A stretch of 64,000 nucleotides of DNA from assembly GCA_964016885.1 (NCBI GenBank), contig OZ024755.1, forward strand, positions 37,200,001-37,264,000, in the 5' to 3' direction. Numbering within the stretch: position 1 is the stretch's first letter; the number at the start of each line of letters is the position of its first letter. Made by a program: the position numbers and the translations under genes. Below the pieces are notes generated by a model, which was given only the letters and a program-made list of their open reading frames with translations, ran no database searches and had not been told where the DNA came from. This stretch comes from Eledone cirrhosa (taxonomy: Eukaryota). Of this stretch, positions 18,391 to 26,052 are shown in pieces.

Positions 18391-18720
18391 TATAAAAGAC
18401 GTAAAATAATAAAACATTTTTTAAAAAACTTAAAAAAAATTTTTTACTTACTTACTTAAATTTTCACTCCAACTAATTAGTTTCTGCAATGGGATAAAGA
18501 CAGTTACATAATCCAACTGTCGAGAATTCATTGCGTCATCAGGGAGTCTATTCTCAGCTGAGCCTCCAGGCAATGCGCGGACACTAGCGGCTCATATAAA
18601 AATAATAATTCGGTAGAAAGAACAGCTAGGCGAGGACTGGATTCTATGTACTGAAATTCTCACTGCTTCCAGTCAAATGTCCGATTCTAAAGAATCAATC
18701 ACGTGACATAGAGGCTAGTT
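18391..18720 (-). repeat. Inverted partial copy (last ~330 bp) of the 553-bp array unit, including HHR at 18466-18547
   Basis: Reverse complement of 18948-19277. Confidence 0.95.
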
Positions 18721-21700
18721 TATATTATTGTTCTGCACCCTCCTGCATTGAACCACCTAGGTACTATGACATAACCTGTGTATTTGCTGGCATGGACGTG
18801 CATCTGTGCGCCTATGTTAGTTGATATATTAAATTATCTATATTTATCTCCAAATCACTGATTTGTCGAGCAAACCTGCCAAAACCACTTCAAAATTTTT
18901 TTTGGGGTGTTAGTAGGCGTCAGTCATCTTACCATCCCATTCCTTTTAACTAGCCTCTATGTCACGTGATTGATTCTTTAGAATCGGACATTTGACTGGA
19001 AGCAGTGAGAATTTCAGTACATAGAATCCAGTCCTCGCCTAGCTGTTCTTTCTACCGAATTATTATTTTTATATGAGCCGCTAGTGTCCGCGCATTGCCT
19101 GGAGGCTCAGCTGAGAATAGACTCCCTGATGACGCAATGAATTCTCGACAGTTGGATTATGTAACTGTCTTTATCCCATTGCAGAAACTAATTAGTTGGA
19201 GTGAAAATTTAAGTAAGTAAGTAAAAAATTTTTAAAAAATTTTTTAAAAAATGTTTTCTTATTTTACGTCTTTTATATTATTGTTCTGCACCCTCCTGCA
19301 TTGAACCACCTAGGTACTATGACATAACCTGTGTATTTGCTGGCATGGACGTGCATCTGTGCGCCTATGTTAGTTGATATATTAAATTATCTATATTTAT
19401 CTCCAAATCACTGATTTGTCGAGCAAACCTGCCAAAACCACTTCAAAATTTTTTTTGGGGTGTTAGTAGGCGTCAGTCATCTTACCATCCCATTCCTTCT
19501 AACTAGCCTCTATGTCACGTGATTGATTCTTTAGAATCGGACATTTGACTGGAAGCAGTGAGAATTTCAGTACATAGAATCCAGTCCTCGCCTAGCTGTT
19601 CTTTCTACCGAATTATTATTTTTATATGAGCCGCTAGTGTCCGCGCATTGCCTGGAGGATCAGCTGAGAATAGACTCCCTGATGACGCAATGAATTCTCG
19701 ACAGTTGGATTATGTAACTGTCTTTATCCCATTGCAGAAACTAATTAGTTGGAGTGAAAATTTAAGTAAGTAAGTAAAAAATTTTTTTAAAATTTTTTAA
19801 AAAATGTTTTCTTATTTTACGTCTTTTATATTATTGTTCTGCACCCTCCTGCATTGAACCACCTAGGTACTATGACATAACCTGTGTATTTGCTGGCATG
19901 GACGTGCATCTGTGCGCCTATGTTAGTTGATATATTAAATTATCTATATTTATCTCCAAATCACTGATTTGTCGAGCAAACCTGCCAAAACCACTTCAAA
20001 ATTTTTTTTGGGGTGTTAGTAGGCGTCAGTCATCTTACCATCCCATTCCTTCTAACTAGCCTCTATGTCACGTGATTGATTCTTTAGAATCGGACATTTG
20101 ACTGGAAGCAGTGAGAATTTCAGTACATAGAATCCAGTCCTCGCCTAGCTGTTCTTTCTACCGAATTATTATTTTTATATGAGCCGCTAGTGTCCGCGCA
20201 TTGCCTGGAGGATCAGCTGAGAATAGACTCCCTGATGACGCAATGAATTCTCGACAGTTGGATTATGTAACTGTCTTTATCCCATTGCAGAAACTAATTA
20301 GTTGGAGTGAAAATTTAAGTAAGTAAGTAAAAAATTTTTTTAAAATTTTTTAAAAAATGTTTTCTTATTTTACGTCTTTTATATTATTGTTCTGCACCCT
20401 CCTGCATTGAACCACCTAGGTACTATGACATAACCTGTGTATTTGCTGGCATGGACGTGCATCTGTGCGCCTATGTTAGTTGATATATTAAATTATCTAT
20501 ATTTATCTCTAAATCACTGATTTGTCGAGCAAACCTGCCAAAACCACTTCAAAATTTTTTTTGGGGTGTTAGTAGGCGTCAGTCATCTTACCATCCCATT
20601 CCTTCTAACTAGCCTCTATGTCACGTGATTGGTTCTTTAGAATCGGACATTTGACTCGAAGCAGTGAGAATTTCAGTACATAGAATCCAGTCCTCGCCTA
20701 GCTGTTCTTTCTACCGAATTATTATTTTTATATGAGCCGCTAGTGTCCGCGCATTGCCTGGAGGCTCAGCTGAGAATAGACTCCCTGATGACGCAATGAA
20801 TTCTCGACAGTTGGATTATGTAACTGTCTTTATCCCATTGCAGAAACTAATTAGTTGGAGTGAAAATTTAAGTAAGTAAGTAAAAAAAAAAAAAAAAAAA
20901 AAAATTTTTTTTAAATTTTTTAAAAAATGTTTTCTTATTTTACGTCTTTTATATTATTGTTCTGCACCCTCCTGCATTGAACCACCTAGGTACTATGACA
21001 TAACCTGTGTATTTGCTGGCATGGACGTGCATCTGTGCGCCTATGTTAGTTGATATATTAAATTATCTATATTTATCTCCAAATCACTGATTTGTCGAGC
21101 AAACCTGCCAAAACCACTTCAAAATTTTTTTTGGGGTGTTAGTAGGCGTCAGTCATCTTACCATCCCATTCCTTCTAACTAGCCTCTATGTCACGTGATT
21201 GATTCTTTAGAATCGGACATTTGACTGGAAGCAGTGAGAATTTCAGTACATAGAATCCAGTCCTCGCCTAGCTGTTCTTTCTACCGAATTATTATTTTTA
21301 TATGAGCCGCTAGTGTCCGCGCATTGCCTGGAGGATCAGCTGAGAATAGACTCCCTGATGACGCAATGAATTCTCGACAGTTGGATTATGTAACTGTCTT
21401 TATCCCATTGCAGAAACTAATTAGTTGGAGTGAAAATTTAAGTAAGTAAGTAAAAAATTTTTTTAAAATTTTTTAAAAAATGTTTTCTTATTTTACGTCT
21501 TTTATATTATTGTTCTGCACCCTCCTGCATTGAACCACCTAGGTACTATGACATAACCTGTGTATTTGCTGGCATGGACGTGCATCTGTGCGCCTATGTT
21601 AGTTGATATATTAAATTATCTATATTTATCTCCAAATCACTGATTTGTCGAGCAAACCTGCCAAAACCACTTCAAAATTTTTTTTGGGGTGTTAGTAGGC

Positions 21701-24700: not shown

Positions 24701-26052
24701 ACTGTCTTTATCCCATTGCAGAAACTAATTAGTTGGAGTGAAAATTTAAGTAAGTAAGTAAAAAATTTTTTTAAAATTTTTTAAAAAATGTTTTCTTATT
24801 TTACGTCTTTTATATTATTGTTCTGCACCCTCCTGCATTGAACCACCTAGGTACTATGACATAACCTGTGTATTTGCTGGCATGGACGTGCATCTGTGCG
24901 CCTATGTTAGTTGATATATTAAATTATCTATATTTATCTCCAAATCACTGATTTGTCGAGCAAACCTGCCAAAACCACTTCAACATTTTTTTTGGGGTGT
25001 TAGTAGGCGTCAGTCATCTTACCATCCCATTCCTTCTAACTAGCCTCTATGTCACGTGATTGATTCTTTAGAATCGGACATTTGACTGGAAGCAGTGAGA
25101 ATTTCAGTACATAGAATCCAGTCCTCGCCTAGCTGTTCTTTCTACCGAATTATTATTTTTATATGAGCCGCTAGTGTCCGCGCATTGCCTGGAGGCTCAG
25201 CTGAGAATAGACTCCCTGATGACGCAATGAATTCTCGACAGTTGGATTATGTAACTGTCTTTATCCCATTGCAGAAACTAATTAGTTGGAGTGAAAATTT
25301 AAGTAAGTAAGTAAAAAAAAAAAAAAAAAAAATTTTTTTTAAATTTTTTAAAAAATGTTTTCTTATTTTACGTCTTTTATATTATTGTTCTGCACCCTCC
25401 TGCATTGAACCACCTAGGTACTATGACATAACCTGTGTATTTGCTGGCATGGACGTGCATCTGTGCGCCTATGTTAGTTGATATATTAAATTATCTATAT
25501 TTATCTCCAAATCACTGATTTGTCGAGCAAACCTGCCAAAACCACTTCAAAATTTTTTTTGGGGTGTTAGTAGGCGTCAGTCATCTTACCATCCCATTCC
25601 TTCTAACTAGCCTCTATGTCACGTGATTGATTCTTTAGAATCGGACATTTGACTGGAAGCAGTGAGAATTTCAGTACATAGAATCCAGTCCTCGCCTAGC
25701 TGTTCTTTCTACCGAATTATTATTTTTATATGAGCCGCTAGTGTCCGCGCATTGCCTGGAGGCTCAGCTGAGAATAGACTCCCTGATGACGCAATGAATT
25801 CTCGACAGTTGGATTATGTAACTGTCTTTATCCCATTGCAGAAACTAATTAGTTGGAGTGAAAATTTAAGTAAGTAAGTAAAAAATTTTTTTAAAATTTT
25901 TTAAAAAATGTTTTCTTATTTTACGTCTTTTATATTATTGTTCTGCATCCTCCTGCATTGAACCACCTAGGTACTATGACATAACCTGTGTATTTGCTGG
26001 CATGGACGTGCATCTGTGCGCCTATGTTAGTTGATATATTAAATTATCTATA
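18721..26052 (+). repeat. Tandem array of 13 full ~553-bp HHR-containing units plus ~120-bp partial unit (retrozyme / PLE pseudo-LTR array)
   Basis: Unit starts TATATTATTGTTCTGCA at 18721, 19274, 19827, 20380, 20950, 21503, 22051, 22604, 23157, 23705, 24258, 24811, 25378, 25931. No ORF called in the supplied track. Units nearly identical. Confidence 0.95.
19121..19202 (+). ncRNA. Type I hammerhead ribozyme (first of 13 tandem copies)
   Basis: ACTCC-CTGATGA-c GCAATG...CATTGC a-GAA ACTAATTAGT T-GGAGT. Stem I actcc/ggagt, stem II gcaatg/cattgc with inner hairpin gacagtt/aactgtc, palindromic stem III, predicted cleavage after GUU at 19197. Confidence 0.88.

Follow-up and report, generated by a model that had tools for sequence, protein, structure and literature searches.

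The question raised by this locus is how a non-coding tandem array came to lie within a (TA)n tract of the Eledone cirrhosa genome, and which machinery could have placed it there. The array is part of a 64,000-nucleotide stretch of contig OZ024755.1, referred to here as the window, and is built from units of about 553 bp that each carry a type I hammerhead ribozyme. By its sequence features the array is a new family of animal retrozyme of the non-LTR type (LTR, long terminal repeat), a non-autonomous Penelope-like element, and we consider it likely that the window copy represents a single insertion, written into (TA)n by Penelope-like machinery acting in trans, of a non-coding tandem element that is dispersed in the genome.

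Structure of the array

The array contains 13 full units on the + strand, spanning 18721–25930 and ranging from 548 to 570 bp in length. Unit spacings are 553 bp in eight cases and 548 bp in two, the remaining two being 570 and 567 bp in units with a longer A-run. The pairwise identity of the 13 units averages 99.4% with a minimum of 98.5%, the GC content is 0.37, i.e. below 50%, and no stop-to-stop frame of at least 120 amino acids is present within the array. Tandem Repeats Finder does not report the array because the period limit was set to 500. Unit positions are counted from 18721, and the predicted ribozyme cut follows unit position 477. The features are as follows.

18109..18394, strand not applicable: left (TA)n target tract; the boundary with the element is ambiguous by about 4 bases
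18395..18720, - strand: short arm, unit positions 228-553, 326 bp, 98.8% identity, 3' end leftward; its outer end is the fixed End A (unit position 553 plus TATA), followed by (TA)n
18466..18547, - strand: type I hammerhead of the short arm, the 14th in all; cut predicted between 18471 and 18470
18719..18720: head-to-head arm junction, with about 2 bases of microhomology common to both arms
18721..25930, + strand: long arm, 13 tandem units
18721, 19274, 19827, 20380, 20950, 21503, 22051, 22604, 23157, 23705, 24258, 24811, 25378, + strand: starts of the full units of the long arm
18961..18976, + strand: motif that we take to be E-box-like, one per unit
19121..19202, + strand: first of 13 type I hammerheads; predicted cut after 19197
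19197, 19750, 20303, 20856, 21426, 21979, 22527, 23080, 23633, 24181, 24734, 25287, 25854, + strand: positions after which cuts are predicted
25931..26057, + strand: 127-bp tail, unit positions 1-127; its outer end is the fixed End B, followed by (TA)n
26058..26130, strand not applicable: right (TA)n target tract, with an uncertainty of several bases in its boundary

A sequence-only reading of the window had described 13 near-identical units of about 553 bp, 14 hammerheads, an inverted partial copy ahead of the array, a partial 14th unit at its end, (TA)n on both sides, the lack of any open reading frame (ORF), and a first predicted cut 3' of 19197. All of this was reproduced, the 5' hammerhead motif being found 13 times on the + strand, from 19121 to 25778, and once on the - strand at 18547. 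The inverted arm and the end piece are real, but that reading overlooked that both outer ends are fixed across the family in the manner of Penelope-like elements. The E-box-like motif is likewise kept across subfamilies and is a candidate for part of an internal promoter.

Fold and conservation of the hammerhead

Each of the 13 consecutive units contains one type I hammerhead, as had been claimed, with the core elements CUGANGA, GAA and the U-H triplet intact and all three helices present. Stem I has 5 bp, stem III is a 10-nt palindrome, and the cleavage triplet is GUU. Stem II is not the plain helix of the earlier description; it spans 51 nt with internal and terminal loops and combines a 6-bp helix, interrupted at its base by a 1x1 C.A insertion, with an inner hairpin of 7 bp. 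The check with Infernal proposed earlier came out negative, in that no Rfam hammerhead model scored above its gathering score anywhere in the window, and none matched 19000–19900 even at E values up to 10. The long stem II is probably the reason for the miss. Because Rfam finds no hammerhead, the assignment as a ribozyme is based on the motif together with covariation.

Across subfamilies the core, the palindromic stem III, a stem II G-C pair and an A before G12 at the base of stem II are invariant, and the remainder of stem II changes in pairs. In a set of 18 copies chosen to span the subfamilies, 96.9% of cells are paired, compared with 34–46% in slid controls, and 41 cells have changed on both sides, a count reached by none of 500 shuffles. 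These compensated cells indicate that the hammerhead fold is under selection in the aligned copies. The signal sits in the cell counts, in which related sequences are counted more than once; the number of pairs with a double change (7) was reached by 25 of 500 shuffles and the number of further pair types (15) by 414 of 500.

The predicted energies make cleavage as a dimer plausible, since stem III is unfavorable as a hairpin (+1.5 kcal/mol) and stable as an intermolecular duplex (-9.0 kcal/mol), and a single motif reaches its lowest energy in a structure other than the hammerhead (-22.0 versus -17.3 kcal/mol for the hammerhead). The circularized monomer is predicted to fold with -134.2 kcal/mol and 60% of its bases paired, at a z score of -4.6 relative to 40 shuffles.

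A simple motif scan also found more than 20 other type I hammerhead families (in the window at about 34828 and 47436, both on the - strand, and in loci L031–L139), many of which combine a palindromic stem III with a stem II whose base contains a 1x1 mismatch. Two related hammerheads in L040, at 796 and 1485, lie 689 bp apart, have a 50-nt stem II domain, and probably represent another retrozyme family.

Dispersal of the family

The genome-wide search for dispersed copies that the sequence-only reading had proposed returned thousands of loci. A DNA search of the 3.0-Gb genome of the species itself gave 935 candidates, and the 39 that were scored are 97–100% identical and lie on many contigs. 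Searching the genome for the 23-letter 3' half of the ribozyme yields 4,396 exact matches and a variant with another upstream base yields 7,602 more, with no match to the reversed control in either case, for a total of about 12,000 copies; the C closing stem II is missing from only 195 matches. For the End A motif there are 11,527 matches. Whole units taken from fetched loci are 520–595 bp long and 67–100% identical to those of the window (121 units, 110 of them distinct). Contigs labelled as two further organisms contain pieces of the family at lower identity, and the family is probably not confined to the Eledone genome. A single locus without dispersed relatives, the outcome named beforehand as refuting the retrozyme proposal, is excluded by these numbers, and the dispersal of the family supports its assignment as a retrozyme and non-autonomous Penelope-like element.

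For counts free of selection by score we used 59 consecutive loci over 88 Mb of contig C1, obtained from the first 100 exact 3'-half matches and referred to below as the unbiased sample.

Two arms and two fixed ends

A typical copy consists of two 5'-truncated arms placed head to head, with their 3' ends pointing outward into (TA)n. End A, at unit position 553 plus TATA, lies about 80 nt past the cut, and End B lies at about position 127 of the next unit. The two-armed loci among the window and 20 loci picked by score have A and B on opposite strands in 16 of 16 cases. The same pairing is found in 32 of the 34 two-armed loci of the unbiased sample, the other two having A and B plus a third piece, and in 17 of 24 two-armed loci from other subfamilies (46 loci, after 14 of 60 fetched were dropped as repeated loci or non-members), where seven could not be assigned and none was A+A or B+B. 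All 65 of the 65 cleanly classified two-armed loci are A+B, under end classes tolerant enough to take in short-stopping arms such as those of L102 (at 518) and L056 (at 109). Under the filters used, 25 of the 59 unbiased loci have one arm only, some of them with a second arm too short to reach the threshold. That single-armed copies end at A without exception proved false (13 at A and 12 at B).

Ends A and B each lie directly 3' of a long predicted hairpin, which in the tail of the window copy spans about 25988–26039, and each finishes in TAT(A) microhomology with (TA)n. The presence of (TA)n on both flanks hides any target-site duplication (TSD). Either arm can be the longer one: in the window the B arm has 13.3 units and the A arm 0.6, and in L036 the A arm has 9.6 units and the B arm 1.0. 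Symmetric junctions between the arms occur in L100 (35/35), L106 (77/77) and L109 (150/150), and at the cut site in L218, L223, L227 and L232.

The 5' ends of the arms are spread over the whole unit (138 arm pieces, and 69 more in other subfamilies), which a template lacking any fixed 5' end would lead one to expect. Patterns for 5' ends located at the cut site gave 19 matches, all of them true junctions, compared with 18 matches and about 13 true junctions for a control two bases away. After a rough correction for pattern acceptance the excess at the cut site is about twofold, and for this reason cut linear monomers are not the main template. This modest excess and the covariation of stem II bear only indirectly on self-cleavage of the transcript. 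A cluster of 10 of the 138 arm pieces starts at unit positions 339–345, inside an (ATT)n run. An apparent cluster at position 463 in other subfamilies was an artefact of the pattern by which those loci were chosen.

Two loci of unusual structure were noted. In L266 (G000:C3:131344800-131345300) the stretch after the cut site has been copied repeatedly in short pieces, twice from the cut site itself, which repeated re-priming at the 5' end of the RNA would explain. At L053:4390-4898 a repeat of about 650 bp meets a B arm of the 553-bp family in a head-to-head junction; the repeat, also seen in L264 and L265, belongs to a non-coding family of 893 candidates with internal short repeats and an E-box-like motif. 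L053 was considered as a chimera with the mobilizing element and rejected, the other arm being this non-coding family with no ORF or hammerhead seen in it.

Length and history of the window copy

The long arm of the window, with 13.3 units, is the longest found; in the unbiased sample arm length has a median of 0.9 unit and a maximum of 3.9 units. One sequence variant is present in 6 of the 13 window units, the 548-bp form corresponds to units 6 and 9, and another variant, with a long A-run, occurs in units 4 and 12. Since variants recur in non-adjacent units, a single pass around one monomer cannot yield the array. The earlier proposal of a rolling-circle array made from a monomer is weakened to this extent, one pass being excluded for the window copy. 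The array needs either block duplication after insertion or a mosaic multimer as template, and its length is an outlier that is partly due to duplication rather than to one pass round a monomer circle. The window copy would have grown later to 13 units through duplicated unit blocks, or else would derive from a multimer that was already mosaic.

A probable Penelope-like mobilizer

The family is read as Penelope-type because its ends, tail and arms match the layout described for Penelope-like elements. In the mechanism that we propose, an autonomous Penelope-like element would supply reverse transcriptase (RT) and GIY-YIG nuclease in trans, and the enzyme would nick both strands of the (TA)n target. 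The 3' end of each target strand would then prime complementary DNA (cDNA) on the element RNA, at either of two fixed sites that both directly follow a long hairpin on its 3' side and finish in a UAU(A) microhomology. These cDNAs would stop at variable points and be linked by end-joining, sometimes through short palindromes. The template may be a monomer circle, formed when the hammerheads of a tandem transcript cleave it in a dimer-dependent manner and the host ligates the product. Priming probably proceeds from both strands of the cut target.

The insertion site is a (TA)n tract with the 3' end of a long interspersed nuclear element (LINE) to the left and a Penelope-like copy to the right. 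The latter, at 26131–28525 on the + strand, is 5'-truncated and has one stop; its RT was identified, and full copies are present in L140–L142. The very active autonomous family to which it belongs has a 4.1-kb tandem unit, 23,387 genome candidates, and a frame of 1,217 amino acids (L140) with a long asparagine-rich insert and a Cys-rich linker near its end, after which the protein is presumably GIY-YIG-like; Pfam gave no match on the full 1,217-residue protein. Its repeat has a hammerhead core only, without clear stems I and III. The 3' ends of this family fall within its own ORF, at 25, about 68 and about 83 nt from the start, and copies end in (TA)n at fixed sites 43–58 nt apart; among the 46 ends listed, 20 fall at one site and 18 at 654–669. 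The neighboring family is in this respect a positive control for the footprint. It was rejected as the sequence parent, having no similarity to the unit (word size 7, E up to 1), and is possibly one of several enzyme donors.

Several observations weigh against mobilization by Penelope-like machinery in trans. The neighboring active element has a shorter tail, of 43–58 nt, and the tail of 127 nt found here exceeds the 30–40 bp in print for this layout (PMC8557442, PMC3846280). The search for an ORF-linked parent, which the sequence-only reading had called for, failed among the loci sampled from the genome: no similar autonomous element was found, and a profile search over the fetched loci gave only family members. 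Four sets of contigs were compared with the array; the one presumed to derive from RNA matched only the A/T-run stretch and says nothing on expression.

Some features of the surroundings deserve mention. A broken LINE RT at 16531–18108 (+) ends in a short GTAAAAGA repeat adjoining the (TA)n tract of the array, and at 15030–15530 (-) lies a GIY-YIG end from another Penelope-like family. A compound tandem array with periods of 109/135 bp and 28 bp occupies 43072–44505.

Template and alternative explanations

As the RNA that the enzyme copies, we put a ribozyme-made monomer circle a shade below even chances. The two arms of a copy nearly always share one haplotype. Within a locus the arms differ by 2.0%, compared with 6.7% between loci (17 unbiased loci), and in 11 of the 17 the arm pair falls in the closest tenth; in L033 and L037 private variants fill every unit of both arms. 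Several results point away from the circle. Variants are confined to a subset of units in the window, L031, L032, L035, L036 and L044, three of the 17 unbiased loci have arms 6–9% apart, and the likeness of the two arms can reflect the subfamily that was active at the time. A hint of whole-lap stops in a hand count of B arms (4 of 63) was not borne out genome-wide, where no excess of such stops was found (4 matches, position 132) in a comparison that is rough because its patterns cover different subfamilies. In the one in vitro study, on Poseidon, the ribozyme was dispensable and unprocessed RNA was the main template (PMC11167929), and of 9 dimers of frog retrozymes 8 failed to cleave in vitro (10.64898/2026.07.22.740005). 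A bias of RNA-editing type is absent from the variants, with A>G at 8 of 128 A sites and T>C at 9 of 168 T sites.

The main competitor of the monomer circle, which we regard as a real contender albeit well under even chances, keeps the same enzyme but has it copy linear tandem RNA that is transcribed from a few long master arrays, such as that of the window, and left uncut, with the hammerhead acting elsewhere, in trimming or turnover, and circles a by-product or absent. Ribozyme mutants that insert normally in vitro and the lack of reads ending at the cut site (PMC11167929) agree with such a template, as do arms that pass freely across the cut site and the mosaic variants within arms, including a two-unit period in L035 and one variant present in a subset of units of both arms. 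The cluster of 5' ends at 339–345 could likewise mark the start of transcription, but 7 of 8 genome-wide matches to its test pattern carry an ATT extension within the (ATT)n run, and the cluster is probably slippage rather than a transcription start. Most loci are moreover too short for a multi-unit template, only 5 of 95 arms in the unbiased sample reaching 2 units, and a fold strongly kept over 30% divergence suggests that cleavage matters. Fold-back self-priming on an antisense template, in place of two target-primed cDNAs, has been argued for rotifer Penelope from junction palindromes (PMC3846280) and would account for the symmetric junctions listed above. We think it improbable as the source of the inverted layout, given that most junctions are asymmetric and either arm can be longer, that the arms of L031 carry different variants, and that the two outer ends are fixed, which is what two start sites would lead one to expect.

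Two further explanations were weighed. Head-to-head arms are also a product of LINE twin priming, and LINE fragments flank the locus, so that a LINE-type machine, or else a DNA rolling-circle transposase, might be held responsible. We judge this very unlikely: there is no poly(A) or LINE-like 3' tail, the hammerhead is a type I of Penelope kind, and the second end has a fixed position downstream of the first, as in a Penelope tail and not as in LINE twin priming. An ordinary satellite, or an assembly expansion of one pseudo-LTR (pLTR), is the least credible account of all and, for the whole element, is refuted. The 13-unit arm lies far beyond the unbiased range and shows block duplications, and local expansion probably did add units to the window array. 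However, the family is dispersed over thousands of loci that share its two ends, its units carry structured common variants, unlike those of a collapsed or duplicated assembly unit, and in place of the few long arrays without fixed ends of an ordinary satellite the median arm has 0.9 unit.

Returning to the Penelope-type enzyme and the circle, we tentatively put forward, at somewhat less than an even likelihood, a combined account in which the enzyme pair rolls round a ribozyme-made RNA circle from two fixed starts 127 nt apart, one per strand and always one of each, in a lineage that keeps a non-canonical hammerhead through subfamily turnovers without a sequence-related parent. If true, this would be genomic evidence for a step that the retrozyme cycle has been assumed to include, and it would define the sites of priming.

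Comparison with known systems

Metazoan non-LTR retrozymes are tandem hammerhead repeats of animals with units of 170–400 nt (PMC7229834). The present family resembles them in its non-coding tandem organization with one type I hammerhead per unit, its low GC content, highly self-paired monomer, dispersed dimers and multimers, and a palindromic helix III suited to dimers; a mismatch at the helix II base is shared by the axolotl HHR_Amex2, which still cleaves (PMC7229834). It differs in its 553-bp unit, its 51-nt stem II domain, and the absence of a parent pLTR among the loci sampled. The unit is long, as had been remarked earlier, relative to the range in PMC7229834, but not relative to the 51–972 bp given for retrozymes of 31 vertebrates, three insects and one coral, which a preprint argues to be non-autonomous Penelope derivatives on the basis of co-occurrence and pLTR likeness (10.64898/2026.07.22.740005). 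Penelope-like elements had already been named as candidates for copying retrozymes back into DNA (PMC7229834). Two head-to-head arms with two fixed ends are not described in the available parts of PMC7229834 or 10.64898/2026.07.22.740005. In the published literature we found no report of the 553-bp family or of strict two-end pairing in a retrozyme; supplements, Repbase and Dfam, which lay outside the search, may hold one.

The hammerhead shares with those of Penelope type a long helix II, a helix I of 4–5 bp, an extra base between 9 and 10.1, a conserved G10.1-C11.1 and a small palindromic helix III, and departs from them in a second extra base, the invariant A, between 11.1 and G12, in the inner hairpin on helix II, in the 10-nt length of the palindrome and in the GUU triplet (PMC4209133). 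Endonuclease-positive (EN+) Penelope-like elements have 5'-truncated partial tandems, an inverted copy that is likewise 5'-truncated and placed head to head, a tail at just one of the ends, insertion into microsatellites that hide the TSD, and a hammerhead in the repeat (PMC8557442, PMC3846280), all as found here, whereas the 553-bp family has no ORF. Multicopy head-to-tail non-autonomous forms are known (MRC1), and the non-autonomous forms of Chlamys resemble their autonomous partners at the 3' end (PMC8557442, PMC3846280), in contrast to the present family, for which no partner was found among the loci sampled.

A parallel for the two ends is Poseidon of Anolis carolinensis, for which both target strands are cut and extended in vitro and two internal starts bound the tail (PMC11167929). 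Both systems use an AT-rich target and have two start sites, predicted ones in the present family, downstream of the hammerhead, the first 85–92 nt past the cut in Poseidon and about 80 nt here. The start site of Poseidon is not homologous to the target, whereas both ends of the 553-bp family have TAT(A) microhomology with (TA)n, and the Poseidon ribozyme needs protein and is dispensable for insertion (PMC11167929). The exact start sites and a 553-nt substrate make it possible to ask which template, circle or linear multimer, is copied by a Penelope enzyme, and the subfamilies provide a natural covariation series for an odd hammerhead missed by Rfam. The retrozyme class was already known and its link to Penelope already proposed; what the 553-bp family adds is the insertion footprint, made up of the tail, the head-to-head arms and the strict pairing of the two ends.

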